Below the pieces are notes generated by a model that was not told the origin of the DNA, made no database searches, and was given only the letters and a program-made list of their open reading frames with translations. A stretch of 64,000 nucleotides of DNA, from positions 10,313 to 74,312 of the forward strand of contig CAZTRG010000296.1 in assembly GCA_964615885.1 (NCBI GenBank), given 5' to 3'. The DNA is from an uncultured Planctomycetia bacterium (lineage in GTDB: Bacteria > Planctomycetota > UBA8108). Positions 13,542 to 57,453 of the stretch are shown one piece after another (positions within the stretch are counted from its first letter, which is position 1; every line of letters starts with the position of its first letter). Made by a program: the position numbers and the translations under genes.

Positions 13542-16500
13542 TTACTTATCTGCATCTTCACCCGCTTCCGGCCCTTCCTGCTCAACCCCTTCCGGGCTGC
13601 CCTCCTCCGCAGGTTCGCCACCGGCCTCCGGAGCGCCGCCGGCTTGCTCCTGGGCCTTCTTGAAATCCTCTGCCAGCTCGTTCACCAGGCGCCCGACATT
13701 GCCCTGGCGCTGATGAAGACGCTCAAGCGTCCGCGACCACTGCTCTGAACCCTGGCCATCGTTGCTCTGGCGGAAATCTTCAAGCTGCCCTGTCTGCCGG
13801 TTGATCTCAAGCTGCAGATTCTTGAGCATCAGCAATTCTGCCAGGATCGTCACCAGGGGTTGCCTTCCCTGCTGCTGCAGCTGCTGTTGCTGTTGCTGCT
13901 GCTGTTGTTGTTGCTGTTGCTGCTGCTGGCGCTTCATCAGCTCGAGCTGTTCCTGCAGGGAAGCCATCATCCTCTCCAGGTCGACAACAATTTCCTTCTG
14001 CAGAAACTGGGTAAAGGAATCCGTCTCAAGCTCCAGGAGAAGATCCCGAACCTGTTGCATATCGGCGCTCACATTGTTCAGCATAAAGCTGAAGACCTTG
14101 GAGGACTCTTCCTCAAGGCGCCCGATCAACGAGACCACCTTCTGCGCCAGCTCCCCTTCACCCTGCGCGAGAGGTTCGAGAAGACGCTGCAGAGAGGCTC
14201 TCCTGCGGCGGCTCAAGCGCCCGCTGGGCCTGCTCTCCTGGGCCTTGGCCGTCCCCGCATTGATCTCCAGCTGGGCATCCCTTGCCTCGGTCAACTCGTT
14301 GATCATCGAGACAAGCTCCTGCTCACGCTTTAACTCCGCGAGGCTTTCCTCCTCTCTACGAAGCTCTTCCTCCTGCTGCTGCAGCTTCGCGAGGGCATCC
14401 TCCTGGTTCTTCTCAGCCTCTTCCGGGTTATCCTTCTCCAGGTTTTCAGAGGCCTTCTTCATGTCCCTTGAGGCTTCCTCAAGTTGTTGAGAGCGCTGCT
14501 GCTGCCCGGATGACTTGCTCTGCCGTGCAGCCTGCGAGGTCTGCCGCGACAGCTCTTCCTGCTCCTGGGCCTCCTTCTCAAATTTTTTGCGCCGCTCGAG
14601 CCTGGCCAGCTCTTCTTTTTTCTCCTCCTCAACAGCCTCTTCAGCCTTCTTGAGTTGCTCAAGAGCTTCTTCCTGCTTCTTACGGCTCAGCTCCCTGCGG
14701 CCCTGGGCCGAATCCCTCATCTTGCTGGCAGCCTGCTCCAGGGACCTGGAAATTTCCTGGAGACGTCCAGGCTCCTGCTGGTCCTTGCGCCGGAGCTTCC
14801 GTTCAAGCCGATCGGCCTCTTTCGCTGCCTCCTCCGTCTTGCGGGAAAGTTTCCTGCTAAGGTCACGGCGCTTTTCTTCCTCTGAACGCTTCGCAAGACC
14901 CTCCCTTGCTTTTTGCAGCTCCTTGCTGGCCTGCTCAAGAGCAGCGCCAGCCTCCCTTCCGGACTGCTCGGCCTGTTCCCTGCGTGCTTCGCTGAGCGAC
15001 TCCCTGGCCTGCCTCATCGCCTGCGATGCTTTCTGGAACAGGGAGGCCCCTCTCTTCAGTGCCTCGCGCGCTGATTCAGAAAAGCTCTTCTGTGCCTGCT
15101 CCCCCAGCTGGGCAGAGGATGCCGACGCCTTGCGCGCCAGCCGGCTCTCCTCCTGTTCAAGACCCGCCGTCTGCAGGGAGTTCCTGGCCCGGGCCTCCTT
15201 CAGCTGGCGGCTAATCTCCTCCCTGGCCTTCTCCAGCTCTTCCACCGCAGCAGCCTGGTTCTTTTCCGCCCCGGCGAAGTCTCCCTGCTGGATTTTCCTG
15301 CCGGCCTGCTCATTCTTTCCCGCAGCTGCCGAAAAGTTCTCCCTGGCCTCCCCGGGCAACTCCGCATTCTCAGACTCTTTGCCAAGGCGCTGAATTTTCC
15401 CCTGCAGATCCGCCGTACGGCTCTCCAGCTCCGACTTCAAGCGCGAGATCTCCTGGGCGGCTCGTGCCTGCTCCAGCTCACTGACCCCCTTGCGAATCCT
15501 GGGCTCGGTCTTCTTTCCGGGATCTTTTTCCGACGGCTGGCCCTGCTTCCCAGCCTCCTGCCCGGTTTCCTTTCCGGCTTCCTTTCCGGCTTCCTTCCCA
15601 TCTCCTGGGGTCTTTTCCGTTTTCTCGGGACTGTCATCGCCGGGTGAGTCCTTGCCGGCATCTTTCCCCGGTTGATTTTCACCGCCACCGGACGGCTTTT
15701 CATTACCGCCTTCTTTACCGGTCTTGCCGGGTGAGTCCTGGCCGGCCTCGGGGCTCCCCGCTTTTGCAGCTCCGGCCATTTGCTTCAGCTCTTCAGCCCT
15801 CGATCCAAGGTCGCGCAGGTCTCCGGTCAATCCCCGGGCCTGCCGGATGAGGCCATCGAGCTCCTCAAGAACCTTCTTTGCATCCGCGATGGTCTCCTGG
15901 TCCTTCCGGGACTCTTTACCGCCGGGCAATTTCTCTATTCCCTCGTTAACCCTTTCCTGCAGCTTCTGCAGGGCCTGGGCCTCTGCGAGGGCGCTCTCAA
16001 TCGCCTCACGGTCCAGGGCCTTCCCCTCCGAATCGATTTGATCTACCGGCTTGCCATCAAGCAGCCCCTTCTGCATCTCCAGGGCCTTCCTGATCATCTC
16101 CTGGAGATCCTCCAGCTGGGCTGAATTCTGTTTCGATTCAAGAAACTCCCGGGTCTTATCCAGCAGGCGCTCCTGTTGCTGCTTGAGCTCTGCGGCGATT
16201 TGCCGGTCCTTCTTGAGCTGCTCCAATTGCTTGCCGGTACGGTCCTCGCTGAACTGGCTGGCCTCCAGCACGGAGAGGATTCCCTCGATGACCTTGATCG
16301 CATCATTCTGGCTGGAGACAGCCTCGATAAACTGCTTGTTGGAGAGCATTCCCTCAATCTGGGAGAGGGTGTCAGGCAGGCGCTGGTTCCTGATCTGGCG
16401 GGCAGCCTCTCTCAGGCGCTCCGCATCCTCGGGCTCACTGGCCTCCAGCTTTGCAGCCACCTTCTCCATGTCATTGGCAAGCTTGATGACGATGGCCCGG

Positions 16501-16685
16501 ATCTGTTCCTGCTCGCGCGAGAGCTCCTGGTCGGAGGCCTGCTGCGGCTGCCCCAGGGCTTCTGATGTGGCAAGCGGACACCAGGCCAGGAAACAGATAA
16601 AGCTGACTCTGCAAAGAACTAACCGATTTGGCATGATCAGATACATCTTAACCGACTGTAAGCACGAAGGCATCCCACTCCTCAT
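13542..16685 (-). CDS. Secreted 1047-aa coiled-coil protein, E/K/R/Q/A-rich, with a ~21-residue polyglutamine tract. Last gene of the MoxR/BatA-like operon.
   Basis: Signal peptide (LVLCRVSFICFLAWCPLATSEA). Long heptad-like charged segments. Q17-L-Q3 run. GKEA tandem repeats. ATGA start/stop overlap with the upstream gene at 16682-16685. Confidence 0.6.
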   Translation of the reverse strand: MRSGMPSCLQSVKMYLIMPNRLVLCRVSFICFLAWCPLATSEALGQPQQASDQELSREQEQIRAIVIKLANDMEKVAAKLEASEPEDAERLREAARQIRNQRLPDTLSQIEGMLSNKQFIEAVSSQNDAIKVIEGILSVLEASQFSEDRTGKQLEQLKKDRQIAAELKQQQERLLDKTREFLESKQNSAQLEDLQEMIRKALEMQKGLLDGKPVDQIDSEGKALDREAIESALAEAQALQKLQERVNEGIEKLPGGKESRKDQETIADAKKVLEELDGLIRQARGLTGDLRDLGSRAEELKQMAGAAKAGSPEAGQDSPGKTGKEGGNEKPSGGGENQPGKDAGKDSPGDDSPEKTEKTPGDGKEAGKEAGKETGQEAGKQGQPSEKDPGKKTEPRIRKGVSELEQARAAQEISRLKSELESRTADLQGKIQRLGKESENAELPGEARENFSAAAGKNEQAGRKIQQGDFAGAEKNQAAAVEELEKAREEISRQLKEARARNSLQTAGLEQEESRLARKASASSAQLGEQAQKSFSESAREALKRGASLFQKASQAMRQARESLSEARREQAEQSGREAGAALEQASKELQKAREGLAKRSEEEKRRDLSRKLSRKTEEAAKEADRLERKLRRKDQQEPGRLQEISRSLEQAASKMRDSAQGRRELSRKKQEEALEQLKKAEEAVEEEKKEELARLERRKKFEKEAQEQEELSRQTSQAARQSKSSGQQQRSQQLEEASRDMKKASENLEKDNPEEAEKNQEDALAKLQQQEEELRREEESLAELKREQELVSMINELTEARDAQLEINAGTAKAQESRPSGRLSRRRRASLQRLLEPLAQGEGELAQKVVSLIGRLEEESSKVFSFMLNNVSADMQQVRDLLLELETDSFTQFLQKEIVVDLERMMASLQEQLELMKRQQQQQQQQQQQQQQQQLQQQGRQPLVTILAELLMLKNLQLEINRQTGQLEDFRQSNDGQGSEQWSRTLERLHQRQGNVGRLVNELAEDFKKAQEQAGGAPEAGGEPAEEGSPEGVEQEGPEAGEDADK
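13868..13928. repeat. Imperfect trinucleotide repeat (CTG/TTG)n on the plus strand, equal to (CAG/CAA)n on the coding strand, encoding polyQ
   Basis: ctgctgctgcagctgctgttgctgttgctgctgctgttgttgttgctgttgctgctgctg read directly. About 20 units with mixed synonymous codons. Confidence 0.9.
15564..15599. repeat. Three tandem 12-bp units (ggtttcctttcc / ggcttcctttcc / ggcttccttccc) encoding GKEA-type tetrapeptide repeats in the coiled-coil protein
   Basis: Read from the sequence. The protein shows ...GKEAGKEAGKETGQEAGKQ... Confidence 0.8.
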
Positions 16686-19081
16686 TCTTCTTCCTCCGGT
16701 TCACCCTCACCGCCCCCGAGAAGATTCCTGGTATTGTCACGCAGCCCTTCCTGGCGGCGCTTGATCTCCCTCATCAACTGGATGAGCCCACGCAAATCGC
16801 CGAATTCACTCATTCGTACAACAATAGACTCAAGGTCTCTCTCTACCTCGAGCTGAGAACCAACAATCCTGCCCAGGCTGGCCGGATCCTGGTCCGATTC
16901 CTGGACCAGCGAACGAAGCTCATCGAGCTCCCCCGCGATCCGGTCAGATTTGAGCTTTGAGATCTCAGTTAATTCTTTCTCCAGCCCGGTGAGCCAGTCC
17001 TTCCACTTCTGCTCGCCCACCTTGTTGATCTTCATCTTGGCGAGCAGCCGGCCGAGGTTCCCCGACAGGTCGAGCAATCCTTCCGAAACCCGTACCTGGT
17101 CCTGGCGATGCCGGGAGATGCGTCCGGCCGAATCCTTTCCCAGTTTCTTTCCGAGAAGAAACTGGCTCTGCGATTCCTCGAGGTCCTTTCTTACCGATTC
17201 CTGTCGTCCCCTCAGCCTGTCGGCAATATCACGCAGGGCCATGACCTCACGGGCATACTGGTCCTCGAGATACTCCGGATCAACCACCTGCAGAAGGTAT
17301 TCCTGGGACACTCCGATATTTCCCTTCCCCCCTCCCCCATCACCGAAATCCTCCGCAAGAACAAAGAATTGAAACCGCGCACCCGATGAAGGAGCGCCAC
17401 CATCTCCCCCACCAAGCTCAGCGACCTTCAGGACATACGGATCAAGCTCCGGCTCGCTCTCTCCCCCCGCCGGGCCGGCAGCCGAGACATCGAGCAGGGT
17501 CACCAGGTTGCGCTCAGGCTCGGTCTCTCCGGCAGAATAATAGCTGCCCTGGAGTTCGATTTTTTTCACTGCGTAGTCGTCCTTGATAACTGCAAGGATG
17601 GGAACCTCCGCACGAGGCGACACGTCTTCTGTCAGCCGTTGCGGCTCAACAATCCTCACCACCGGCTTGCGATCGGCGACCGCCTGGATCCTGAAACGCT
17701 CCGATTGAGTACTTCGAAATCCTCCCGGATCTTCAAACTGGAAGAAATAGCTGCCGCTTCCCTCGACCACGAAATTCCCGCTGAACCGCCTTCCCTCTGT
17801 AATCTCCAGGGTGGCGGCTTCCGGGTCAGGCCAGCTGGAGTCCTTTGCCCCGGCAACCTCTTTTTCATCGACCCCTTTTTTCAAAACCAGGTAGGCCTTG
17901 GCAATCTCAACATTGGCTGCCAGCCTGAAGCTGACCTTCGTTCCCGCGGGCACCTTCAAATTACCGTGGCGCTGAACAACCTCTTCAGCACTCTTGCCGG
18001 TATAGACCGGGTTGCGGTAGGCCACCCTGTTGAAGCCCCCCTCCTCCCACTCCTTCATATCGATCCTCGGACGGTTGCGGACCTTGACCTCTACCCATTC
18101 TGTCTCATCCTCGCCGCTGCCATCGAAGGCCTTGAAACTGAAAGCCTTGCTTACATTTCTGAATACATAGGCAAAGCGCCTGGAGCCCTGGCTCGACTCC
18201 ATGGGCTTCCTTCCACCTGAACCATCCTCGAGCTTCCACTCTATCTCGACAATCCTTGGCGAGCCCCGCAGGACACGTACCGCAACAGACAGGTCATCTC
18301 CAACGGCGACAAACTCCGGAGTGCCCTCCTCGATCTCCAGCTGGATACTCTTTGGCCAGTCCACCGACCTGTCGAGAAACACGTTTCTCTGCAGCCAGAT
18401 TGCTGCGAGATCCGGCTGCCAGCCGGCCCCTGCGCCGATCGTAGCTGCCGCCAGGCAAAAGATGCCGAAATTCAACTTCAGGCGCCTGAGATCTATAACC
18501 TTGCCGGAGAGAAGCGAACCAGCCCCTGACTCAACCTCCTCGACCACCGAATCAAGCATCTCCCGGGAGACATCACGGGATCCGGCGCTCTCAGCGCGGC
18601 AGAGCTCAACAGCGGTAACCAGCGCCTGGTTGAGCTCCGGGTTGGCCTCCTCTATAAGCATCGCCAGCTCAGGATCCTCAAGCTTGCGCGAAAGCGGCGC
18701 CAGGACTCCCCGCATAAGCAGCCAGAGAAACCCGGCGGAAGCCCCAAGCAGGAAAACCAGCCTGGCCGCAAAGGGCAATCCCCTCGACTGGCCGGAGCCC
18801 ACCAGGTTGAGGAAATAATCGAGCCCGAAAGAAACCAGCAAGGCGAGGGCCACGATGGATCCCAGGCGCAAAAGACCGCGCAGGAATGAAATCGTGCGGA
18901 TCTTCCGGCGTAGCAGGGCAAGGATCTGCAGGCTCCGCTGCGGCGTCTTTCCTGGTGTTGAGGTCGAGCCTGTCAAAGGATCAGTTTTCCGTGATCGGCA
19001 GATACTGGTTCGGATATTGCAGGATGATCGACGCCATGGCGGTTGCATAGTTGGAGCCCACCAGGTCGGTCCACTGGCCAC
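16682..19081 (-). CDS. Membrane protein with two N-terminal TM helices, a ~680-aa extracytoplasmic region and a C-terminal coiled coil. Part of the MoxR/BatA-like operon.
   Basis: TM segments (LGSIVALALLVSFGLDYFL; LVFLLGASAGFLWLLM). Gly/acidic stretches (GGGDGGAPSSG, DFGDGGGGKG). The annotated ATG at 19081 overlaps the upstream gene by 100 nt; a TTG at 18976, 5 nt after the upstream stop, is an alternative start. Confidence 0.45.
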   Translation of the reverse strand: MASGPTWWAPTMQPPWRRSSCNIRTSICRSRKTDPLTGSTSTPGKTPQRSLQILALLRRKIRTISFLRGLLRLGSIVALALLVSFGLDYFLNLVGSGQSRGLPFAARLVFLLGASAGFLWLLMRGVLAPLSRKLEDPELAMLIEEANPELNQALVTAVELCRAESAGSRDVSREMLDSVVEEVESGAGSLLSGKVIDLRRLKLNFGIFCLAAATIGAGAGWQPDLAAIWLQRNVFLDRSVDWPKSIQLEIEEGTPEFVAVGDDLSVAVRVLRGSPRIVEIEWKLEDGSGGRKPMESSQGSRRFAYVFRNVSKAFSFKAFDGSGEDETEWVEVKVRNRPRIDMKEWEEGGFNRVAYRNPVYTGKSAEEVVQRHGNLKVPAGTKVSFRLAANVEIAKAYLVLKKGVDEKEVAGAKDSSWPDPEAATLEITEGRRFSGNFVVEGSGSYFFQFEDPGGFRSTQSERFRIQAVADRKPVVRIVEPQRLTEDVSPRAEVPILAVIKDDYAVKKIELQGSYYSAGETEPERNLVTLLDVSAAGPAGGESEPELDPYVLKVAELGGGDGGAPSSGARFQFFVLAEDFGDGGGGKGNIGVSQEYLLQVVDPEYLEDQYAREVMALRDIADRLRGRQESVRKDLEESQSQFLLGKKLGKDSAGRISRHRQDQVRVSEGLLDLSGNLGRLLAKMKINKVGEQKWKDWLTGLEKELTEISKLKSDRIAGELDELRSLVQESDQDPASLGRIVGSQLEVERDLESIVVRMSEFGDLRGLIQLMREIKRRQEGLRDNTRNLLGGGEGEPEEEE

Positions 19082-20183
19082 CAGCCTCCTGCAACAGGAG
19101 CAGATCCTGTCTTATCGCCTCGTACCAACGCTGCCAGAAGCTGCCGCCTTTCTGAAAGGCTGCCTGCACTGCGTAGTACTGGAAATAATAATAATCAAAG
19201 GTGTAGCGAGCCTCTCCCCGAAGCGGACGCTCCCGCCAGATGTAGCGAAGCCCCTCGTTGATCTGAAAGGCATCGTATTCTCCTGCACTGTAAAGAGTCG
19301 TCACTCCTGCCGCCGTCAAGGCCGGGGTCCAGCGACTGTGAACCCCCCTGAACTCAAGGCCCAGCTGGTAGGTAAAAGCCCCGACCCCGGGGACGAAGCT
19401 CTTCTTGACATAGTTTACGGCCTTATCGATCGTCCCCGATGGGACCTCGATCCCTGCATTGCGGGCTGCACGAAGAGCCATCATCTGGCAAACCGTGATC
19501 GACATATCTGAATCCTGGGCACCTGGACGGTACCGCCAGCCGCCTTCCGGATTCTGGGCGTTGACAATCAACCTGATAGAGCTCTTCAGGGCCCGTTTCA
19601 TCCTGTCGGTATCACGATAGGAACCGGTTCCATAGGCTTCCGCCAGGAACAGGGTGGCGAAGGCGTGGCTGTACATCCGCGAGCCATTGGCACTGATAAA
19701 ACCATTGGCCGCAGATACCCGGCTGATCACATATTCGAGTGCTTTCTCAAGCACCTCGCAGAAGGTGACCTTTCTGCCGTTCTTCATGACATAGCCGGCA
19801 GAGCCCTGGCCCGGCAGAACGCCATGAGCCAGGAAGGCGATCCCGGCAAGACCGGTCACCCCCACATGTGGAGCGACGGTTCCCCGGTAGGTCATATGAA
19901 CCTTGCGACCGACCCTGTCGGTCCAGGAGCCATCGCGATTCTGGTTCAGGGCGAGAAATTTGAGCCCCTTTTCAATCGCCCCCGCGGTAGAAGCATGCAC
20001 TCCGCGAGCCAGCGGCCTGGGCTTCACTCGAGGGCTTGGCGGCTTCTTTTCCTGTGCGAAGGATAAGACCGGGAGCCCTGAAACCAGGCAGATCGCCACC
20101 AGCAGCGAGAAACGCACAAAAAGCGGCCTGGAGAAATAGTTGGGGGGTTCTTTTAACAGTTTTCCGCTGTCCATCGGGAACAT
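18981..20183 (-). CDS. Secreted prenyltransferase / squalene-hopene-cyclase-like (alpha/alpha-toroid) repeat protein
   Basis: Signal peptide. Repeats of the QW-like signature (AIEKGLKFLALNQNRDGSW; NAQNPEGGWRY; GGQWTD). Paralogous to the C-terminal domain of the 41270..42976 protein. Confidence 0.6.
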   Translation of the reverse strand: MFPMDSGKLLKEPPNYFSRPLFVRFSLLVAICLVSGLPVLSFAQEKKPPSPRVKPRPLARGVHASTAGAIEKGLKFLALNQNRDGSWTDRVGRKVHMTYRGTVAPHVGVTGLAGIAFLAHGVLPGQGSAGYVMKNGRKVTFCEVLEKALEYVISRVSAANGFISANGSRMYSHAFATLFLAEAYGTGSYRDTDRMKRALKSSIRLIVNAQNPEGGWRYRPGAQDSDMSITVCQMMALRAARNAGIEVPSGTIDKAVNYVKKSFVPGVGAFTYQLGLEFRGVHSRWTPALTAAGVTTLYSAGEYDAFQINEGLRYIWRERPLRGEARYTFDYYYFQYYAVQAAFQKGGSFWQRWYEAIRQDLLLLQEAGGQWTDLVGSNYATAMASIILQYPNQYLPITEN

Positions 20184-20291
20184 CCGGGCTGAGCCTGGGG
20201 CCTTGCTGTAACTACCTTGGGGATTTTACCGCCAATGATACGTAAAATCCTTTGAATAAAGGCTTTTGAGGCCCGGGGAGCGGCCTGAACG

Positions 20292-22838
20292 TCAAAATGT
20301 AGGGCCACCGAAGGCCGAGAGCCAGCTCTGGGAGGAAATGATAATCTGCCCACCGCCGATATGCGGACTGCCGACCTGGAAAAGCCGCCCCGCAACGGTC
20401 TCTCTCGAGAGTAACCGGAGGCGTTTTCTCAGGTCAAAACCAACTGTTTCAAGCTGTCCACGGCTGGCATAAAGCACACCGCTTGAGGTCAGCAATCCCC
20501 TCGCCTTGATAGAATCCGGCTCCCATACAAGCGGAGAACCAATCCGGGAAACCTGCGGCAGTCGCGTCAATCTGTCGATGGTCTCATCCGGCCCCGCGGC
20601 CTTCTTACTGCCGGCCGGAATCGAACGAGGCAAGCTGCCAGCCAGCTCTCCCTCGATGTTGAGCGAAGAGATATCGAGGGCGAAAATCCCATCCCTGCCT
20701 GAAAAATATAATCTTCCCTGGTGAGCTCCCAGGAGGTCACGAAGATCACCGGCAGAGTTGTCATAGGTCCAGAGGATCTGGCCTTCCCGGCTGGCGCCAC
20801 CCGGCCCGCACCCGGTATCGATCGCAAAGAGGTATTGTGAATCCCTCGGAGCCACAATCAGCACGTTGCCGATCAGCAGGGGAGAGTTGAGCCCCCAGTG
20901 GAGCTCTCTCATGCGGGGAAACCTCCCAATTGTCGGGGGCGGCTTAATATAATCATAAGCAGTCACCCACAGCACCCTCCCACTGCGGCTTTCGATCGCG
21001 GCCACGGCACCGAGATTCGAAAGATAGTAAAGGACTCCGTCCTTCTCAGTCAGGAAGGAGGCAAAAGGCTCCCTTCCCAGCTCGCCAAACATCGTCTGTT
21101 CCATCTGGGCAGAGGAGACGGACGCCTCCCAGACGGTCTTGCCGGTGCGCAGGTCGAGAGCCCGCACCAGGCTGTTGATGTAACCATCCTGCTTCCAGCC
21201 ACCGGCGAAAACGAGCCCATCTCGAACCAGTGCCGGAGAGGAATAGCTGATCTCTGCCGGGATCTCATTGGGGCCGTAGATATCCTGCTGCACCGCGTCA
21301 CGCAGGTCCTCGGTACGCCAGATGAGCTCTCCACTCTTGCGGGAAAATGCCGCCAGGGATCTCGTTGGAATGCTGACCGTGATGTCATACCCCATGTAAT
21401 GACGGCGCCTGGAGAACCCGGCGATGTAATGCGACAGCAGGAGCTCATCGGGCAGCTCCTGCAGACCGGAAAATCGATCCGCACCGGCAGCCCTGTCCCG
21501 GCCCCAGGTGGTTACGGTATAGAGCGCAGAGTCGCTCTGTTCGCGGTACCTTCCCTTTAACCCGGCGGGGGTCGGCTTGGGAATCTGCCGCAACAGCTTC
21601 CCGACTCCCGGACGTGCATCGATCTCGTAGATACTGTAGACGCCGGAAAGGAATACGGTATTGCGCTGTACAAGCGGAACAAAGGGGTAATCAATTCCAC
21701 GTGGCTGGAATATCTGCCCGCGAGCAAACCCACCGTTGAGCAGCGGGTCATAGTTATCTGCGATGGCCACCGTAGAGGCCCAGTCGAGGCTTTTCCAGGA
21801 TGCCTCCAGGGGACCACCCGGGAGATCGGGAAGTCCACCGGCACCCAGCCTGGGCGAAGCCGCCCCACCGGGAACCTCGCCTCCCCAGTAGCTTTCCTGG
21901 ACAGTGCCGGCCGGCAGCGGCAGCCCCCCCTGGAAATCAGCCTTTTCAAGCCTCTTTACAAGGTCCTCATAGCCTGCGAATGCATCTTCTCCTGCTGCCC
22001 GGGAGAACCCGGCATAGCGCTTCTTTTCATGGCTGAAAAGTTTCGATCTTCCACCGTGCCTGAGGCAGGTCAGCGCCTTTTCCACCAGCCGGCTGATCGA
22101 TTTCGAGGCTGGTTCTTCCCTGGCCGAATCTTCCAGGACAGCCCTGTATCCGACCCAGGCCTTATCGTAAAAGCCGGCCTCAAAATCCAGGTCAGCCTTT
22201 AATTCACGGGCAAAAAATCCCGGCTCGGTAAGGGAGTAAAGCCTGCAGACATCATCGAGGACAGCCCTGTCCCCCTCCTGCCGGTAGCGCTGAAGAAGCT
22301 GGCTGGCAGCCTCCGTATAGAGCTTGCGGTAGGTGCCGCGCGCCTGGGCGGGAAGCATGCCCAGGACGATCCTGGCAGCCCGGCCGGCCTCGACATACCG
22401 CCCCCATTCCCTGTTAACCTGGGCAGCTTCCTCGAACCTCTGAACCCGGGGCCTGGGAAGCTGGCCGGGCCGGATAATGACCGGGCCACGGGATGGGCGA
22501 GCCGGAGGTGGTTTGAGGACCTGCTTGCGGGAAGGAGAGGCCAGCAGCGCCCGGAGACGGCCAAGATCTCCTACCGATACCGGCAGACGCACCATCCCCC
22601 CCTTCTGAGAGCTGATAAGACCCTGGAGGATTCGAACACCGGTGGAGTGATCATTCCGGCCGACTGCATCCAGTGCCTCCAGAAGCTTCGACTCCCACTC
22701 TCCCCCGGCCCCGGCCACCAGGACCTGCTCACGAGCCGGCAAGGCCAGCTGGCAACTCACCAGGAGTGTGAGGGAAACTGCAAACACCCACCGGTAGCGC
22801 GGCGAGGTTATTTTTCCGGGGCTTTGTGCAAACACCAT
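20292..22838 (-). CDS. Secreted PQQ-like (BamB-type) beta-propeller repeat protein, 848 aa
   Basis: Signal peptide (VFAVSLTLLVSCQLALPA). Recurrent A-x-D-x-x-T/S-G-x-x-L/VW repeats (LVRALDLRTGKTVWEA; VAAIESRSGRVLWVT; LFAIDTGCGPG...ILWTY). Confidence 0.55.
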   Translation of the reverse strand: MVFAQSPGKITSPRYRWVFAVSLTLLVSCQLALPAREQVLVAGAGGEWESKLLEALDAVGRNDHSTGVRILQGLISSQKGGMVRLPVSVGDLGRLRALLASPSRKQVLKPPPARPSRGPVIIRPGQLPRPRVQRFEEAAQVNREWGRYVEAGRAARIVLGMLPAQARGTYRKLYTEAASQLLQRYRQEGDRAVLDDVCRLYSLTEPGFFARELKADLDFEAGFYDKAWVGYRAVLEDSAREEPASKSISRLVEKALTCLRHGGRSKLFSHEKKRYAGFSRAAGEDAFAGYEDLVKRLEKADFQGGLPLPAGTVQESYWGGEVPGGAASPRLGAGGLPDLPGGPLEASWKSLDWASTVAIADNYDPLLNGGFARGQIFQPRGIDYPFVPLVQRNTVFLSGVYSIYEIDARPGVGKLLRQIPKPTPAGLKGRYREQSDSALYTVTTWGRDRAAGADRFSGLQELPDELLLSHYIAGFSRRRHYMGYDITVSIPTRSLAAFSRKSGELIWRTEDLRDAVQQDIYGPNEIPAEISYSSPALVRDGLVFAGGWKQDGYINSLVRALDLRTGKTVWEASVSSAQMEQTMFGELGREPFASFLTEKDGVLYYLSNLGAVAAIESRSGRVLWVTAYDYIKPPPTIGRFPRMRELHWGLNSPLLIGNVLIVAPRDSQYLFAIDTGCGPGGASREGQILWTYDNSAGDLRDLLGAHQGRLYFSGRDGIFALDISSLNIEGELAGSLPRSIPAGSKKAAGPDETIDRLTRLPQVSRIGSPLVWEPDSIKARGLLTSSGVLYASRGQLETVGFDLRKRLRLLSRETVAGRLFQVGSPHIGGGQIIISSQSWLSAFGGPTF

Positions 22839-22931
22839 CTCGTACTGCCTGCTAATGAATGACTTCCGCTGAAACTATCTTATCTTCCTCTCGGGCACTT
22901 CGCCCACATTACTTTAGCCGGGGCCGGTTGC

Positions 22932-25469
22932 TCAAACCAGGCGTACCGCCTTGCGCAGTATCCACTCCATTGCGAGAATCGAGACAATCAGCACCACGAC
23001 CCACCACTCATCCCAGAGGTTTTGAGCCTTCGGTGTACGTTCGCTTGTGTGGGTAATTCCCTGCACCTTCTCAACAGCCTTCATGATATCGGGGAAATCA
23101 AAGTAGGCGCCGCCGGACAATTCAGCAACCTGCTTGCCGAGGGTCCTGTTGAGGCGGGTATCACGGGCTTCCAGGGCAGGAACCTCCACCGTGTAGGAGG
23201 TGAATGCAGAGCGCTCCTGGGGCGTACCAAGCCAGATATCGTGCCGCCCCCTGGTACCGGCTGAAATACTTCCCCGGTAGATCCCCTGGCCCTGGAGGTG
23301 CAGAGCCAGCTCGATCTCCTGGACGCTCTCTTCGGATTCTCCCTGCACCTGGTGGTAAACCGAGATGGTTTCGTCCTCGGAAGGATTCATGTTCGCATCA
23401 TAAACCTGGGCCTCTACGCCCACGCTCTCTCCGATACTGTAGACCTCCTTGTCAGAGGTGATCGTGAAACGCGGGGTTTTTCCAAGCAGCCTCCCCGCAG
23501 CAACGAAGCGGCAGACCTGGCCCCAGAACCTGTAGAAGTGGAGGTTGTCCACTCCTGCGCGCCAGCGCCAGGTGTTGTCAACAGCACTGAAGAAGGTCCT
23601 GCCCTTTCCGTAATTCATGAAGGCAAAAATAACCAGTGGCTTCGGGGGATTGCTCAGCGGCTGGGTCAGCTCAGGATGCTGGGCCAGCACCACCGCATTG
23701 CCCTTGGGCCGACCGGCCCTGGCGAACCAGAAAAACCCGGGCAGGTGATCGTAGAAACGCCCATCCTCGTTTTCCCAGAGCTGAAGGTTCCGCTCCGGGT
23801 CGTTGTCGAGCCTCATCACAGGATGCTCGCGGCCCACAGCACTCAGCTTGACGTTGAAAGACTTTGTCACCGGGGAATCAAAATCGTTCAGGGTACCTGC
23901 CTCGCTCACCTGGACAGGAAGAAGGGTGTAGAGATCAGAAGAACGCGGATAGCGCGATGGGTTATGGTGCGGGCCGCTGAGAAAGACCACTCCTCCCCCT
24001 GCTGCAACAAACTCCTTGAGCAATTCAAGCCGGGCAAGACCAAGGTGACGCTCAGGGTCGACATCTCCGAGGATGATCACGTGGTATTTAAAGAGCTCAT
24101 CCCGCTGGGATGGGAAGGCGTTCAGCGCAGGCACCCCGGGGGAAGAATCCTGGGTAAACTCCGGATCCGCAGAGAAAAGAAAGATCTGGGTCTCCATCGT
24201 CTTGTCCCGGATCAGGGCATTCTTGAGGTAGCGATACTCCCAGCGGGGAAGGTACTCGGCGTAGAGCACCTTGATCTTCTGGTCCAGCACAGTGATGTTG
24301 CGGGAGAGGGAGGTGTTGTCAGAGAAGACCTCCCCTCCCTGGAACTCCACCTCGACAGTGGCTGTCATCTTTCCGGGTTTTTTCGGGTGGTGAATGAAGC
24401 GGAGTCCCTGGCGTTTCCCCCCACCCTCCAGCACGATGTACTGGGTGTCGACAATAACGGAATCGATACGCAGGTCCACCCGCACTCGCTCTCCCTCGAA
24501 ACCATCGGCCACCACCGACACATCCAGGGGGACATCATCATCGACAAGAACGACATCATTCACATCCACATTGGTAACCCGGATATCCTTCGGCTCATCC
24601 GGGTTGCCGACCCCTACCGCGAAAACAGGGATCTTGCGTTCTCCCAGTCCCCTGGCAAATTCCGTAAGCGAAATCGTATCAGCATTCTGCTGGAAATCGC
24701 TCAGCATGATCACGCCGGAAACCTCCTCGCGGCGCTTGCCGAAGCCGAGCCCCAGGACACCGGAAACCGCGTCCCTGAGTCCCTCGGCTACCTTGGTCTC
24801 CTGCACCCGCTGGTCCCCCCGAACCTTTGAATAGGCAGGCAGGATCTCATCTGCCTCTTCTGTATCTTCTCCTCCTGCCTCCTCGGAGCCTTCGGTGGCG
24901 GAAGAATCATCACCGGCCCCGAGCTTCGAGTAGGTCTTCAGGCTGTTGACCGACCCGCTGAAAGTGTAAACCGCCAGCTTGGCTTTCTTTCTCAGCTTAT
25001 CTATAAAGCCGATCTCCTGGTCCCGCACCAGCCTTCGGACAAGATCATAACGGGTCATCTCTTCACCCGCCGCAGGCCCCAAAAGCTCGGCGATCGCTTC
25101 AGAGATCTCAGGCTGGGAATACTTGTCTCGAATGTCCTGGCTGAGGGAATCGTCCACCAGCAGAACGAGGGTGCTGTCGGTGGTCTCGTAGGTTTTCTTC
25201 TGTCGCACCGGCTGGGCGATCATCAGCAGTGCCAGCACCAGCACCAGGAACCGCAAGGCCCCAAGGGTCCAGCGCCAGCGCGGATTGCCTACCGGCTTTT
25301 CGCGCTTGTAGAAGAAGGTAACCCAGCCGACCACCAGGGGAAGAATGACAAGGACCACAACCCATGGCTCGGGCATCTCGAGCCAGCGAATCTTTTCCTC
25401 TGTCACGAGTCCGGGCTGTGCCCCGGCCTGCGCGAAACAGCCAGGCGTAAAAAAAGCTGTCGGCATCAA
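22932..25469 (-). CDS. BatA-like protein: N-terminal double-TM aerotolerance-regulator domain plus VWA domain, and a long C-terminal region with a terminal TM
   Basis: PWVVVLVILPLVVGW...LRFLVLVLALLMIAQP TM pair. MIDAS motif LVLLVDDSLSQDI (DxSxS). The likely true start is the internal Met at ~25376 (MPEPWVVV); the ORF as listed overlaps the upstream gene by ATGA. Confidence 0.7.
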   Translation of the reverse strand: MMPTAFFTPGCFAQAGAQPGLVTEEKIRWLEMPEPWVVVLVILPLVVGWVTFFYKREKPVGNPRWRWTLGALRFLVLVLALLMIAQPVRQKKTYETTDSTLVLLVDDSLSQDIRDKYSQPEISEAIAELLGPAAGEEMTRYDLVRRLVRDQEIGFIDKLRKKAKLAVYTFSGSVNSLKTYSKLGAGDDSSATEGSEEAGGEDTEEADEILPAYSKVRGDQRVQETKVAEGLRDAVSGVLGLGFGKRREEVSGVIMLSDFQQNADTISLTEFARGLGERKIPVFAVGVGNPDEPKDIRVTNVDVNDVVLVDDDVPLDVSVVADGFEGERVRVDLRIDSVIVDTQYIVLEGGGKRQGLRFIHHPKKPGKMTATVEVEFQGGEVFSDNTSLSRNITVLDQKIKVLYAEYLPRWEYRYLKNALIRDKTMETQIFLFSADPEFTQDSSPGVPALNAFPSQRDELFKYHVIILGDVDPERHLGLARLELLKEFVAAGGGVVFLSGPHHNPSRYPRSSDLYTLLPVQVSEAGTLNDFDSPVTKSFNVKLSAVGREHPVMRLDNDPERNLQLWENEDGRFYDHLPGFFWFARAGRPKGNAVVLAQHPELTQPLSNPPKPLVIFAFMNYGKGRTFFSAVDNTWRWRAGVDNLHFYRFWGQVCRFVAAGRLLGKTPRFTITSDKEVYSIGESVGVEAQVYDANMNPSEDETISVYHQVQGESEESVQEIELALHLQGQGIYRGSISAGTRGRHDIWLGTPQERSAFTSYTVEVPALEARDTRLNRTLGKQVAELSGGAYFDFPDIMKAVEKVQGITHTSERTPKAQNLWDEWWVVVLIVSILAMEWILRKAVRLV

Positions 25470-27790
25470 CCTGCCCTCCTGCCGAAAAACTGGGCAAGCG
25501 CCGTCTCGAGCAACAGGAGTGCAATCACCGCCGCCAGGCAGTGCTTCCAGAACTCGCGGCCAAGCAATTGCTTCTGCTCTTGCCGCCGGCTTTCCACCTT
25601 CTCTGAATAATCGAGGAACTGTTCAGGCTGCACCTCAAAGTGGGTCCCCAGCTCCGAGTCGGCTATTCCACGGAGGTCGCTCTCATCGGTTGAAATATTG
25701 ACGCTGAAATACTCAACGGAGTTGGACTTCGCAGCATCCCCTGGCGGGACATCACTGCCTTCAAGGCTGCGGTTCAGATCCAGCCTGTAGAGCCCCGGGA
25801 TATCTGTCTGGCCATAGGTGATGGAAAATCTCCCGGGGTCGTCAAGTTCGCGCATCGGAGTGCGGGCAGTACGCCCCCCGGGGAGGCTTCTCCCTGGAAT
25901 CGGTGGCGCGCGGAGCATGACCTCCAGAGCGAATTCAGAGCCATCGTAAAACCTCTGAAATTCATCGCCGATCCCCAGGTTGTCATTCAGGGTGCGAAAG
26001 CCAACCAGGTAGGCTATCGATTCATAGAGGAACACCACGTAATCCTGCCAGGCAGGAAACTCGTTCCAGTCATCATCTGCAGATGAGGTGAACCACATGA
26101 CCCGCCCACGGCCGTAGGAGTTGTCAAAGACAGCAGGGCTCCTGTCAAGATCGTTGTAGCGGCAGAAGATCCGGGCGCCGGTCTCCTCCTTCGGCACTGC
26201 AAGCTTCATGAAACGGTAGAAGGGAACCAGGGCCCTGTGCAGCTCGGTGCGTTCCTTGTGCTGGGCAAAATAATCAGCCACGGGGTGAGAGCTGTCTGAA
26301 AACTGCAGGTACACAGGGCTGAGGCTGTCCCCGCGCTGCTCAACCACCTCGAAGGGCAGAAGGCTCTTGGGGCCAGGGGTGTAAAAGAGACTGTTGTAAA
26401 CCTGGGGGTCGACATTATCCCCCATGAACACAACCAGGAACCCGCCCTCGTCAACATAGCGTTGCAGGGTGGCAAGCTCGGCAGGGGCGATGGATTCCAG
26501 GTTCGCCAGGACCACCATGGAATACCTTTTCCATTCCATATCACGGACAAGGTCTGCAGACAGGTTGACCGGCTGAAAGGGTGTAATCCGGCCACCGAGA
26601 ACAGCCAGGGCATCATCCCTCGGCTGCAGCGCCGTCTGCAGGTAGAAGGTCTCGGTCTCGAGTGGATCGACCGCCGGGTCACCATCCACCAGCAGGACCT
26701 CTATTTCATCACGCACCTCGACAGCGAGGAAGCGCTTGTTGTCGATCACAAGGCCATCGGTACGCACCTCGGCAACAACTGTATGGTAGCCGGGTTCATC
26801 AAAACGATAGGGAAGGCTGCGGGTGACCGTACCCCCGGCAGGAATCCTCAGGATCTCTCCCTCCCCGGCTTCCCCACTCTCCGCTCCCATGGCCGGATCG
26901 ACCTGGATAGTAAAAACAAGGCCATCGGCCTCCTTGTCCCCGTAGTTCCTGAGCGTCACCTGGATCTCAACTGTTACTCCCTTTGAGAAGAGATCAGGCT
27001 TTACCGCCAGGCTGGTAACGGCCACGTTGGGCCGGTTGCTCTCCGATGCTCCAATTCGTGAAAACACGACATCGTGCCCATCCTGCTTGAGCTCCTTGAG
27101 CAGCTGCTTGAGCTCCGGAGAGCGTGGACCTTCATCTCCCAGCCAGTCCTTTCGCTGCAGGTCGCTCAGCAGGACGATCCTGCAGGGTTCAACAGGGCCT
27201 CCATCGGAAGCTACGAACTGCTCGCTGAGGTCCTTGATGGAGCGCAGCGAGGTCACCAGGCGCAGCCCCCTGCTGGTACCGGTCAAACGGCCAAGCTCCG
27301 CCTCCAGCAGGGCCCGGTTGGTGCTGTTCATCTGCTTTCGCTCAAGCACCACCGCCGGCACATGCCCAAGCGTCATCACTGCCACATAGGCATCTTCCTC
27401 CACATAGGTACCCACCACGTCCAGGATCGTCTGCTTCGCACTCTCAAGCAGGCTCGACCCTCCATCGACGTAGTCCATGCTGAAGGATGTATCGACCGCA
27501 AAGATCCAGTTCTTGTTGCCGGCAACAGTGCTCGAGGCGGTGTCAGACAGCATGCGGGGACGCGACACCGCCAGGGCCAGCAGAAGCACAATCAGGCACC
27601 GGATCAACAAGAGCAGGAGGTTCTGTACCTGCAGCCGGCGGCGGCTCTTTTTGAGCGCCTTCAGCAGGAACTCCATGGCAGCCCATTTGCGGCGTCGATA
27701 GCGCTGGCGGTTGATCAGGTAGATGAGGATCGGGACACCAACGAGGGCGCCTAGCCAGAGCAGGAGGGGATTGACAAAAAAACTGCTCAC
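25466..27790 (-). CDS. BatA-like protein: N-terminal double-TM domain plus VWA domain, 774 aa
   Basis: PLLLWLGALVGVPILIYLI...LLLLLIRCLIVLLLALAVSRP. MIDAS motif IFAVDTSFSMD. ATGA overlap with the upstream DUF58 gene. Confidence 0.7.
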   Translation of the reverse strand: MSSFFVNPLLLWLGALVGVPILIYLINRQRYRRRKWAAMEFLLKALKKSRRRLQVQNLLLLLIRCLIVLLLALAVSRPRMLSDTASSTVAGNKNWIFAVDTSFSMDYVDGGSSLLESAKQTILDVVGTYVEEDAYVAVMTLGHVPAVVLERKQMNSTNRALLEAELGRLTGTSRGLRLVTSLRSIKDLSEQFVASDGGPVEPCRIVLLSDLQRKDWLGDEGPRSPELKQLLKELKQDGHDVVFSRIGASESNRPNVAVTSLAVKPDLFSKGVTVEIQVTLRNYGDKEADGLVFTIQVDPAMGAESGEAGEGEILRIPAGGTVTRSLPYRFDEPGYHTVVAEVRTDGLVIDNKRFLAVEVRDEIEVLLVDGDPAVDPLETETFYLQTALQPRDDALAVLGGRITPFQPVNLSADLVRDMEWKRYSMVVLANLESIAPAELATLQRYVDEGGFLVVFMGDNVDPQVYNSLFYTPGPKSLLPFEVVEQRGDSLSPVYLQFSDSSHPVADYFAQHKERTELHRALVPFYRFMKLAVPKEETGARIFCRYNDLDRSPAVFDNSYGRGRVMWFTSSADDDWNEFPAWQDYVVFLYESIAYLVGFRTLNDNLGIGDEFQRFYDGSEFALEVMLRAPPIPGRSLPGGRTARTPMRELDDPGRFSITYGQTDIPGLYRLDLNRSLEGSDVPPGDAAKSNSVEYFSVNISTDESDLRGIADSELGTHFEVQPEQFLDYSEKVESRRQEQKQLLGREFWKHCLAAVIALLLLETALAQFFGRRAG

Positions 27791-28692
27791 CGCCTTAGAC
27801 TCCCTGCTCGCTTGGCCAGGTAGGTAGAGAGCGCCACATCAAGCGGGTCACTCGTGTCAAGAGCCACGTAATCAAATCGATTATTCCGGCAGGCCCTTCG
27901 CAGGCGGCTGAGGAACTTCTCCAGCTCCTCGAGATAGGCCTCCTTGAGCAGGCGGGGATTGGCCAGGACCTCCTCCATTCCTTCCAGCCCCTCAAACATG
28001 GTCATATTCTGAAAGGGAAAGGTCCTCTCATCGGTGTCGAGCAGGTGAAAGAGGATCACCTCGTGGTTGCAGTAGCGCAGGTGCTTCAGCCCCCGCTCGA
28101 TGTGCTCGATATCATCCAGCATGTCTGAGATGATGACGACCAGGCCCCGGCGGTGAATCCTGCCGGCAAACTCGTGCAGGATAACACCGAGATCGGTCTT
28201 TTCCTTCAAGCCGGGATTCTCAGCCAGCTCCAGGAGGGTCTTGAGATGAGATCCTGTCGAGCGGGCCCCCACCATGTCGCAGACCTTCTCATCAAAAAGA
28301 GCGAGCCCGACGGCATCCTGCTGTTGCAGAAGCAGGTAGGAGAGCGAGGCTGCCACCATCACGCCGTAGTCAAACTTGCTGACCCCATCGGATCCGTAGC
28401 TCATGGACTCCGAGGAATCCAGGAGTATGTGAGTACTGAGGTTGGTCTCTTCCTCGTACTGCTTGATGTAAAAGCGGTCGGAGCGTCCGAAGACCTTCCA
28501 GTCAATATGACGGACATCATCACCGGGAACGTATTCACGGTGTTCAGCAAACTCGATACTGAAGCCGTGGTACGGACTCCGGTGGAGGCCGGAAATAAAC
28601 CCCTCCACAATCAACCGGGCCTTGATCTCCAGGCGTGATATGCCGTTCAGGACCTTGGGATCGAGGTACTTGGAAGGCGATTCAGCAGCCAA
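27787..28692 (-). CDS. DUF58 (VWA-like) protein, the usual partner of MoxR ATPases
   Basis: Characteristic motifs HRSPYHGFSIEFAEHREYVPGDDVRHIDWKVFGRSDRFYIKQYEEE and HILLDSSESMSYG. Located immediately downstream of moxR. Confidence 0.85.
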   Translation of the reverse strand: MAAESPSKYLDPKVLNGISRLEIKARLIVEGFISGLHRSPYHGFSIEFAEHREYVPGDDVRHIDWKVFGRSDRFYIKQYEEETNLSTHILLDSSESMSYGSDGVSKFDYGVMVAASLSYLLLQQQDAVGLALFDEKVCDMVGARSTGSHLKTLLELAENPGLKEKTDLGVILHEFAGRIHRRGLVVIISDMLDDIEHIERGLKHLRYCNHEVILFHLLDTDERTFPFQNMTMFEGLEGMEEVLANPRLLKEAYLEELEKFLSRLRRACRNNRFDYVALDTSDPLDVALSTYLAKRAGSLRR

Positions 28693-28767
28693 TCATCTCT
28701 CCCTGAAAACTCTCAACCGATGAAATTAAAGTACAGGACAAAGGCAATGCCCGCCCGCAGTTCTCCA

Positions 28768-29883
28768 CTACCCGCTGGCAGCTGCCCCTGCCGCACCGGT
28801 ATCGTGTACGGGGGTTTCCTCCACCAGCCTGTCGATAATCGTCTCAGGACTGACTCCTTCGGCTTCCGCACTGAAGTTCGTCAGGATCCTGTGGCGCAGT
28901 ACAGGATAAGCAACCGCCTGGACATCCTCGGCAGAAACGTGGTTGCGGCCATAGAGAACAGCCCGGGCCTTGGCTCCAAGAATGAGGTACTGCGAAGCTC
29001 GCGGCCCCGCTCCCCATGCAAGCCAGCCCTTGATGTAATCGGGAGCCTCATCCTTATTGATCCGGGTTGCCCGTGTAAGCCTGAGGACGTAACGAATGAC
29101 CTCATCTGCAACCGGTACCTTTCGGACGATTTCCTGCAAATCCCTGATCTCCTCACCATTGAGGATTTCTTCAACCTCGGCCTCCATGCCGACCGTGGTC
29201 CGCTTCATGATCTCGACCTCTTCATCTTCGGTCGGGTAATCCACGAGAATATTGAACATGAAACGGTCGAGCTGGGCCTCTGGAAGCGGATAGGTACCTT
29301 CCTGCTCAATCGGGTTCTGGGTCGCAAGGACGAAGAAGGGCTCATCAAGCTCGTGCTTCTTGCCCCCTGCTGTCACCTGGCGCTCCTGCATGGCCTCCAG
29401 CAAGGCCGCCTGGGTCTTGGGGGGAGTCCTGTTGATCTCATCTGCAAGAATGACGTTGGCGAATACCGGTCCCTGGAGAAACCTGAAGTTCCTCTCCCCG
29501 GTACCCTTGTCCTCCTGGATCACCTCGGTACCCGTGATATCCGATGGCATGAGATCCGGGGTGAACTGGATTCTTGAAAAAGACAGGGAGAGGCAGCGCG
29601 CAAGGGTGCTGATGATCAGGGTCTTGGCAAGCCCGGGAACCCCCACCAGCAGGCTGTGCCCCCTGGCGAAAATTGAGATCAGAATCTGCTCGAGGACCTC
29701 GTCCTGGCCAACGATCACCTTGCCCAGCTCCGCACGGATCCTGTCGTAACTCTCCCGCAGTTTTTTTACCGTTTCAAGGTCACTCGAATCGAGGGGTGCC
29801 TCTGTTGGGGCCTGGGAGCTCTCGTCCTGGTTTTCGCCGGCTTCAGTTTTGTCGATGTCTTCTTCGCTCATCTCGACCTTCAC
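28768..29883 (-). CDS. moxR: MoxR-family AAA+ ATPase
   Basis: [33 protein letters not shown] (Walker A). [28 protein letters not shown] (Walker B / sensor). Classic MoxR/AAA_3 layout. First gene of the minus-strand operon. Confidence 0.9.
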
Positions 29884-55747: not shown

Positions 55748-56015
55748 ATACGAAAGCTCCTCTGTGATTACCGCGCGATTGCCTGCAGCTGCAGGCAATT
55801 ACAATTCAACCGCCCTGTTGGACGGCAGCTCTTCACACGGACCGTCCTGGGGCCTCTCCAACAACTGGAGGACTCTCCTGATCTTCTCTTCTTCTGACTT
55901 CTCTTCTTTTTTCTTCTTCTCTTCTATCCCACTGCTGTGGGGACGGGTCCATTAGTTAACACACAACTACCTGTGGTGCAAGGGGTAGTGTTATCGGAGC
56001 GGCACCTTTTTAGGG

Positions 56016-57421: not shown

Positions 57422-57453
57422 CGGCCAGCCCTCCCTGTTCCGGCGCGATTCCT

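Follow-up and report, generated by a model that had tools for sequence, protein, structure and literature searches.

A bacterial polyglutamine tract as the probable extreme of a conserved glutamine-, proline- and glycine-rich loop in an unannotated Planctomycetota protein family

Introduction

The closest described counterparts of the element treated here are the Q-linkers, which a passage of PMC5801912 (citing Wootton and Drummond 1989) characterizes as stretches of 15-25 residues in which Q, R, E, S and P abound. The element itself is a (CAG/CAA)n repeat that encodes a polyglutamine (polyQ) tract in a probably exported protein of 1047 amino acids (aa); it lies in a stretch of 64,000 nucleotides (nt) from an uncultured Planctomycetia bacterium (GenBank assembly GCA_964615885.1, contig CAZTRG010000296.1, positions 10,313 to 74,312 of the forward strand), hereafter called the window. 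To our knowledge, long pure polyQ runs are uncommon in bacteria, and a pure run of 16 Gln, as found here, is far more homopolymeric than typical Q-linkers.

Several parallels to the Q-linkers are nevertheless apparent. The 20-residue tract and the family loop that contains it (13-26 residues, median 21, by a strict count over 168 members) agree with them in length, and the loop, being Gln-rich with Pro, Glu and Arg, agrees with them in composition, Gly being an additional major component (10%). Both kinds of segment are conserved in position and poorly conserved in sequence, and both are presumed to act as flexible tethers. The context is different: the linkers of NtrC, NifA and NifL join independently folding domains of cytoplasmic regulators, whereas the loop described here is situated inside one predicted bundle of a probably exported protein that has a signal-peptide-like N-terminus and in which Pfam and NCBIfam scans detected no regulatory domains. 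We therefore describe the tract as working like a Q-linker, not as being one.

A second parallel is offered by the gene neighborhood. The Bat/MoxR-VWA operons, studied in Bacteroides, Leptospira, Borrelia and Rhizobium, have yielded envelope, morphology and stress phenotypes without a settled mechanism (PMC5700661). In Bacteroides fragilis BatI, Leptospira bat, Borrelia bb0170-bb0176 and Rhizobium leguminosarum RL3499-RL3502 (cmdA-D), as in the window, a MoxR AAA_3 ATPase, a DUF58 protein and a BatA-N/VWA protein are encoded in one operon, of which the polyQ gene forms the last member in the window.

In our view, the tract probably represents the near-homopolymeric extreme of a flexible loop that is conserved between helices 4 and 5 of an exported family protein. 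The kind of feature, a low-complexity Q-rich linker with codon-slippage indels, is already known, and the present example is an unusually clean one. Taken alone, the tract is a finding of modest weight: a clear example, from a bacterium, of a loop with constrained length and free sequence, with apparent slippage at the codon level visible between near-identical strains. The larger value is indirect and lies in an unannotated family tightly linked to the MoxR/DUF58/BatA-VWA operon of the Planctomycetota, an operon class for which no studied organism has so far yielded a settled function.

Results and discussion

The tract and the conserved loop that contains it

The tract is real and lies far beyond chance expectation. 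Its 20 codons, read on the minus strand, run (CAG)3-CAA-CAG-(CAA)3-(CAG)3-CAA-CAG-CAA-(CAG)2-CTG-(CAG)3, i.e., 13 CAG, six CAA and one CTG, and 19 of the 20 encoded residues are Q. The original prediction, made from the sequence of the window, had described about 21 residues of the form Q17-L-Q3, which is one Gln too many; codon reading gives Q16-L-Q3 (Table 1). Tandem Repeats Finder recovers the tract as a period-3 repeat of 20 copies, and its period-24 reading attains the top score of the 64-kb window (97). It is the sole site in the window with at least eight consecutive CAR codons, a pattern that did not occur once in 100 dinucleotide-preserving shuffles, and for a protein with 11.5% Q the chance expectation of a Q16 run is about 1e-12 per protein (1047 x 0.115^16). 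The mRNA of the tract showed no unusual fold (z-score -0.66). The two Gln codons are intermixed, the longest identical-codon run being three. This mixed usage, pointed out in the original prediction, is genuine, and CAA is moreover enriched in the tracts, where it makes up 30% of the Gln codons, versus 15% in the remainder of these genes (Fisher test on pooled counts, p = 6.5e-5, for genes that are phylogenetically related).

Misassembly of low-complexity reads in a metagenome-assembled genome might conceivably create such a tract or distort its exact length, and it is true that all the relatives found are metagenomic and that one related contig (L010) ends in TAA-repeat junk directly after the tract. 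However, the tract is in frame and has conserved sequence on both flanks, and 13-20 Gln codons are found at the same place in independent assemblies from different projects; we regard an artefact as extremely improbable.

Profile searches place the protein in a large, unannotated family of Planctomycetota with no relative in Pfam, NCBIfam or the PDB. A profile of the C-terminal region (233 positions), run against 1.84 billion representatives of clusters formed at 50% identity, matched 2,937 clusters at E <= 1e-3, of which 1,679 also passed E <= 1e-10; the window sequence went into the profile, which makes its own match circular. Full-length matches are proteins of about 450-1200 aa that have the domain at their C-terminus or close to it, while shorter matches resemble fragments or truncated gene calls. 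Pfam and NCBIfam scans of the window protein, 12 orthologues and 18 distant members produced nothing significant; their sub-threshold matches, to DUF4175, BrxC, SesA and CheT, fall in coiled or low-complexity parts. In the PDB, the sole sequence match to the profile was to huntingtin exon 1 fusions, a polyQ-driven, compositional match, and searches of the literature on DUF4175, on MoxR/BatA in Planctomycetes and on polyQ in bacteria turned up nothing about this family.

Among species-representative genomes, the relatives belong to marine bins of Planctomycetota that were recovered from the deep ocean, Tara Oceans and Station ALOHA. The closest is OC6_3000m_MAG_153, whose identity is 94% for the C-terminal domain and 86% for the entire protein. 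At about 60% identity, 15 of 15 orthologues have a Q-rich run that occupies identical alignment columns and in which D, E, P or R interrupt the Gln residues. A homologue with 35% identity has GKQNQQQGPQ at this position, and those with about 30% identity have QKGQPQQGQGQSQPGEKP or QQGQPSEGQPGQPQPQP, followed by the motif PLVxxxAEL. The original prediction had proposed checking whether orthologues keep a Q-rich tract and had named its absence from them, together with an invariant length in read data, as the outcome that would reduce it to an insertion of one lineage; the tract is instead kept, at the same position. Nor does the window tract stand alone as a rarity; it represents the extreme end of a family-wide feature.

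Directly after the loop comes the most conserved element of the family, LVxxLAEL[KR]M[IL]RxLQxR[VI]NxRT, in a more specific form LVxxLAELKMIRSLQxRVNRRT or in its broad form LVxxLAEL[KR][ML][IL][KR]xLQx[RE][VI]Nx[RQ]T, within a C-terminal domain of about 225 aa. Invariant columns of the underlying alignment (A2) include L165, V166, A170, E171, L172, Q179, N183 and T186. Both the motif and the loop preceding it are present in all of the best 150 profile matches covering the region.

For family-wide statistics we used an hmmalign alignment of 285 sequences covering both flanks, comprising those best 150 matches, 119 from a second database and the original set; the figures describe these 285 best-scoring sequences out of about 2,900 clusters. 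The loop between helices 4 and 5 is low-complexity in all 285 members. Its scored segment has a median length of 23 residues, with an interquartile range of 22-25 and a range of 16-29, and consists of Q, P and G to 28%, 16% and 10%, versus 7.9%, 1.4% and 3.4% in the flanking helices, with hydrophobic residues at about 7%. By the strict count over 168 members, the composition is Q 33%, P 17%, G 11%, E 10%, K 7%, R 5% and S 5%. Among the four remaining loops of the domain, two are invariant in length across the members and two are far shorter, with medians of 8 and 12. Some members have runs of 10-11 Gly or Pro-rich loops at the tract site instead of Gln. Within this set, the window protein has the longest loop and, at 16 residues, the longest Q run, the second-longest being 11.

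Taking these findings together, we propose that selection acts on the presence of the loop, on its polarity, flexibility and paucity of hydrophobic residues, and on a length of about 16-29 residues in the scored segment, and that residue identity matters little, such that composition would drift among Q-rich, P-rich and G-rich states. In the marine clade of the window, the loop has probably drifted to almost pure Gln; the long polyQ run would then have arisen by drift from a Q/P/G-rich linker and not as a new insertion. Once encoded by CAG and CAA, the loop could gain and lose whole codons by replication slippage or unequal recombination, and synonymous CAA codons, along with occasional missense interruptions (L in the window; D, E, P or R in relatives), would keep pure runs short. 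Functionally, it might give slack or reach to the hairpin formed by helices 5 and 6. Of the two roles offered in the original prediction, a flexible linker is the one favored by the family data.

Length variation at the codon level

Evidence for codon-level change comes from 2.2-kb pairwise DNA alignments centered on the tract, in which six of nine indels fall inside the tract (<=60 nt), all six being multiples of 3 nt. Of the related loci (denoted here by L numbers), L006 and L019 are 99.6% identical, their sole indel being one Gln codon in the tract, and L007 and L020 are 99.4% identical and again differ by one codon in the tract. Compared with the two complete relatives in its clade, at 87-88% nucleotide identity, the window differs in the tract by 9 nt from L003 and by 6 nt from L016. 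At the DNA loci of this clade, the tract takes the form Q16LQ3 (window), Q17 (L003), Q18 (L016 and L006) or Q19 (L019), and the Leu of the window goes back to a single CAG-to-CTG change in a segment that has no counterpart in L003. The tract is the local indel hotspot. The length-variable site anticipated by the original prediction is borne out, at the level of strains and species, by whole-codon differences among very close relatives.

Such variation raises the possibility that the repeat is kept precisely because slippage yields in-frame length alleles, which would affect an exposed epitope or the helix 5-6 hairpin in its reach or geometry, thereby supplying heritable functional or antigenic diversity. 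This would be the strong form of the length-variable site named in the original prediction. The one-codon differences between nearly identical sequences and the concentration of local indels in the tract are in keeping with this, as are the 17, 18 or 20 codons in close relatives of the window, and strain heterogeneity that breaks assemblies would fit the contigs that end at the tract (L010, L011 and L013). However, the repeat is an impure microsatellite, with identical-codon runs of three in the window, 3-5 in most relatives and eight in L020, and because these runs are short, slippage should be slow relative to classical contingency loci. The length changes keep the frame, and on/off switching is therefore impossible; further, the narrow band of lengths in the 285 members looks like constraint over diversification, and contig ends at low-complexity repeats are a common effect of short-read assembly. 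We therefore think it unlikely that the repeat is maintained for the diversity it generates.

A contingency (phase-variation) locus was also rejected. The repeat number does differ among close strains (L006/L019, L007/L020), as it does at such loci; but the tract is in frame and has no long run of identical units, the longest in the window being three codons, and its 3-nt unit lies within the coding sequence, where all tract indels are multiples of 3 and repeat number does not switch expression.

Two side observations concern the tract in the related loci. L020 (Ga0066842_10000090) has a pure (CAA)8, the longest identical-codon run seen, made of the rarer Gln codon. Among 11 genome-bin contigs, three end at the tract: L010 (10307-10478) and L011 (2174-2324) inside or just after it, and L013 (6331-6378) about 40 nt before it, the L010 contig continuing into TAA-repeat junk after QQQQPHCQQQ. 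Assembly breaks at low-complexity sequence and strain heterogeneity are both compatible with these ends.

Predicted structure and the setting of the loop

The composition of the host protein (E 15%, Q 11.5%, A 10.9%, L 10.5%, R 8.4%, K 8.2%) agrees with its earlier description as E/K/R/Q-rich, and its N-terminus is signal-peptide-like. On hydropathy scanning, the latter is the single hydrophobic segment of the window protein, which has no other transmembrane-like 19-mer. A comparable N-terminal segment was detected in 131 of 144 full-length members, none of which has a further transmembrane-like segment. By these hydropathy data, the protein is probably exported, with the periplasm as its probable destination.

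The full-length AlphaFold2 model is of low confidence (mean pLDDT 64, pTM 0.38) and wholly alpha-helical, apart from four predicted disordered stretches. Residues 780-1013, modeled separately from an eight-sequence alignment, gave a six-helix bundle with a mean pLDDT of 82.5 and a pTM of 0.81, which indicates one compact predicted bundle. In the models, helix 4 extends into the first 7-8 or so Gln (H111-147 in the fragment, H890-927 in the full-length model), the remainder of the tract has a pLDDT below 50 in both, and the helices on either side are confident. The predicted helix 5 starts about four residues past the conserved LV, inside the conserved motif, and this motif, adjoining the loop as it does, is the obvious first target for mutagenesis. 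The coiled coil of the original prediction was not borne out, the model showing hairpins and bundles of helices and, around the tract, a compact bundle of six helices.

The passage of helix 4 into the tract also bears on the possibility that Gln itself is what matters. The Gln run might prolong helix 4 in the form of a polar helix or a coiled-coil zipper, or drive self-association or condensation in the periplasm, parallel to the helix/polyQ/proline arrangement of huntingtin exon 1. Like the polyQ regions of huntingtin exon 1 and TBP (mixed CAG/CAA), the present tract follows a helix and precedes Pro (GRQP in the window, typically xPP in the family), has CAA interrupting CAG and shows whole-codon length polymorphism; in addition, pure Q17-19 runs recur in the marine clade, and huntingtin exon 1 fusions were the only PDB match. 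That match is compositional and not a sign of homology, however, and the eukaryotic cases differ in that the tract here belongs to a bacterial exported protein, has about 20 residues or fewer and is replaced by Gly or Pro in homologues. Indeed, in most members the site is occupied by a helix-breaking loop rich in Pro/Gly or has no more than 1-3 consecutive Q, and a Gln-dependent mechanism therefore cannot be the conserved function of the family. Model confidence in the tract is below 50, and oligomerization has left no sign among the data gathered here. Hence, a polyQ-specific role, though conceivable within the marine clade, appears quite unlikely to us; the same applies to the aggregation-prone role once suggested for the tract, given that other members fill the loop with polyG (up to 11 G), with Pro-rich sequence or with mixtures of Q, P, G and E. 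Neither a switch nor a polyQ-specific function is supported by the data.

Some points weigh against the tolerant flexible loop that we prefer. Both its flexibility and its function are what we infer, and a loop of about 20 residues inside a compact bundle has no apparent geometric reason; a long crossover connection between parallel helices was considered. The window tract is the longest and purest of the 285, and pure runs of Q17-19 recur in the marine clade, which could be selecting for Gln itself, beyond mere tolerance. Likewise, the enrichment of CAA could reflect selection that stabilizes a tract that matters. Finally, Q-linkers are defined between separate domains, a setting different from the present one.

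A second low-complexity region, central in the protein and predicted to be disordered, varies freely in length among orthologues, unlike the Gln loop. Within it, window positions 15562-15596 (minus strand) hold a 12-nt repeat of 2.9 copies that encodes EAGKEAGKETGQEAGK, i.e., (EAGK)n. In the databases, many family members are annotated at a length of only about 256-270 aa, the full-length relatives having about 600 aa, and in several loci (L014 8914-10001, L015 8791-10001, L028 9042-10001 and L029 8890-10001) about 1 kb of upstream DNA is uncalled or occupied by a probably spurious opposite-strand open reading frame (ORF). The G/E/K/P-rich low-complexity region is probably the cause of such truncated calls; more generally, low-complexity regions of the family genes seem to break assemblies and truncate gene calls in public data.

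The operon and its relation to the Bat systems

The polyQ gene is the last of a minus-strand operon, and its 4-bp overlap with the upstream stop codon recurs in the orthologous L001. Ahead of it, the operon runs, over 18981..29883, through MoxR, DUF58, BatA/VWA, VWA/GATase1-like, PQQ-propeller and squalene-cyclase-repeat-like genes, followed by the gene for a 799-aa membrane protein and then the polyQ gene; the gene order in L001 is the same. The 799-aa partner, or its counterpart, is encoded directly upstream of the family member in every locus examined (n = 8), these loci spanning identities down to about 25-34% to the window C-terminal domain. In seven of the eight, the series MoxR, DUF58, BatA, VWA and a transmembrane protein of about 730-865 aa leads up to the family member; in the eighth, the neighbor of about 780 aa is kept and the MoxR part is not adjacent. 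An HMM scan of the partner and four homologues at E <= 5 returned nothing meaningful. The longest ORF of the partner overlaps the squalene-cyclase-repeat-like gene by about 100 nt (18981-19081), and since the two genes are separated by a gap of 56 nt in L001, its true start is probably further downstream.

Table 1. Features of the polyQ protein and its operon, in window coordinates
Feature	Position	Strand	Basis
(CAG/CAA)n tract, Q16-L-Q3, residues 920-939	13869..13928	minus	Repeat scan, codon reading, shuffles
Whole low-complexity linker KRQ16LQ3GRQP, residues 918-943 (26 residues), helix 4 to helix 5	13857..13934	minus	hmmalign, AlphaFold2 pLDDT <50
Helix 5 motif LVTILAELLMLKNLQLEINRQT, residues 944-965, directly after the linker	13791..13856	minus	Alignment A2
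Conserved C-terminal domain, residues 780-1013, predicted six-helix bundle	13647..14348	minus	AlphaFold2, profile search
Coding sequence (CDS) of the 1047-aa all-alpha, predicted exported protein	13542..16685	minus	ORF, AlphaFold2; overlaps stop codon of upstream gene by 4 bp
Signal-peptide-like N-terminus, residues 1 to ~44; core LVLCRVSFICFLAWCPLA, then SEA|LGQ	16554..16685	minus	Hydropathy scan
Second, central low-complexity region, residues 310-400, G/E/K/P/S-rich, predicted disordered	15486..15758	minus	
Predicted disordered: residues 1-55, N-terminus			AlphaFold2, full-length
Predicted disordered: residues 310-400, G/E/K/P-rich low-complexity region			AlphaFold2, full-length
Predicted disordered: residues 924-940, Gln tract			AlphaFold2, full-length
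Predicted disordered: residues 1011-1047, acidic tail			AlphaFold2, full-length
Upstream partner, ~799 aa, two N-terminal transmembrane helices, no Pfam match	16682..19081	minus	
Squalene-cyclase-repeat-like protein, 400 aa	18981-20183	minus	
PQQ-type beta-propeller protein, 848 aa	20292-22838	minus	
Weak VWA/GATase1-like protein, 845 aa	22932-25469	minus	
BatA-N plus VWA membrane protein, 774 aa	25466-27790	minus	BatA E = 1.6e-16, with VWA_2
DUF58 protein	27787-28692	minus	E = 6.9e-45
MoxR AAA_3 ATPase	28768-29883	minus	AAA_3 E = 4.6e-64

Beyond the shared MoxR/DUF58/BatA-N/VWA core, the window operon departs from the described Bat operons. It additionally has the PQQ-propeller and squalene-cyclase-repeat-like proteins, and by Pfam and NCBIfam neither the polyQ protein nor its partner of about 780 aa has a counterpart in the Bat operons. 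No Pfam TPR or SH3 match of the BatC/BatE type was obtained for the proteins of the window operon. An assignment of the polyQ protein to a named Bat component (BatC, BatD or BatE) was rejected, the protein and its homologues matching no Pfam or NCBIfam family.

Another candidate that we tried and rejected is membership in DUF4175/TIGR02302. These are long alphaproteobacterial membrane proteins, encoded together with MoxR-DUF58-BatA-type genes, with 2-3 N-terminal transmembrane helices ahead of a long extracytoplasmic region; low-complexity stretches rich in Gln and Gly lie outside the membrane. Two distant homologues of the window protein, P0016 and P0020, gave sub-threshold matches to DUF4175 (PF13779) with E = 1e-4 and 2e-3 (21.0 and 16.8 bits versus a gathering threshold of 27.3), and these lie in different, coiled or low-complexity parts of the profile. 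The window protein matched neither DUF4175 at E <= 1 nor TIGR02302 at E <= 0.1, the upstream transmembrane partner gave no DUF4175 signal, and the window protein has one signal-peptide-like segment instead of 2-3 transmembrane helices.

A more far-reaching speculation is that the loop is a length-calibrated tether in an undescribed, Planctomycetota-wide envelope machine composed of the MoxR ATPase, DUF58, BatA/VWA, the two-transmembrane protein of about 780 aa and the exported helical protein. The helix 5-6 hairpin, with the invariant Glu of the AEL in its motif, might move outward on the Q/P/G tether and bind a partner, e.g., the metal site of a VWA domain, and codon slippage might tune its reach between strains. 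We consider this a long shot; if it were true, the polyQ tract would mark a functional hinge in a family of about 2,900 unannotated clusters.

Other observations in the neighborhood and the window

On the 3' side of the operon, the window encodes CNNM/CorC, RecO, a BamD-like TPR protein, LptE and DHPS, which are unrelated housekeeping genes. Loci of the Pirellulales type (L002, L014, L015, L028, L029 and L030) have a different and conserved set after the family member. It comprises an unannotated protein, which has about 350 aa in general and 679 aa in L015, along with an NPCBM-domain protein and three proteases of the trypsin/PDZ (HtrA-like) type. The window lacks this set and has CNNM/CorC and RecO in its place.

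Elsewhere in the window, positions 35675-40330 (minus strand) hold an ORF of 1551 aa whose N-terminus resembles a signal peptide or that of a lipoprotein and which contains many poly-Gly runs, the longest with about 11 G; these runs are partly encoded by (CCACCG)n at 36735-36758 and 37995-38024. The product is another low-complexity protein and is possibly exported. Further, a TCT/CTT-rich tract at 55874-55925, polypurine on the minus strand, is located in a 217-bp gap, just upstream of a gene that we take, by eye from its translation, to be nrdR-like (55241-55798); the other flank of the gap is formed by what we likewise take to be an mnmE-like gene (56016-57644).

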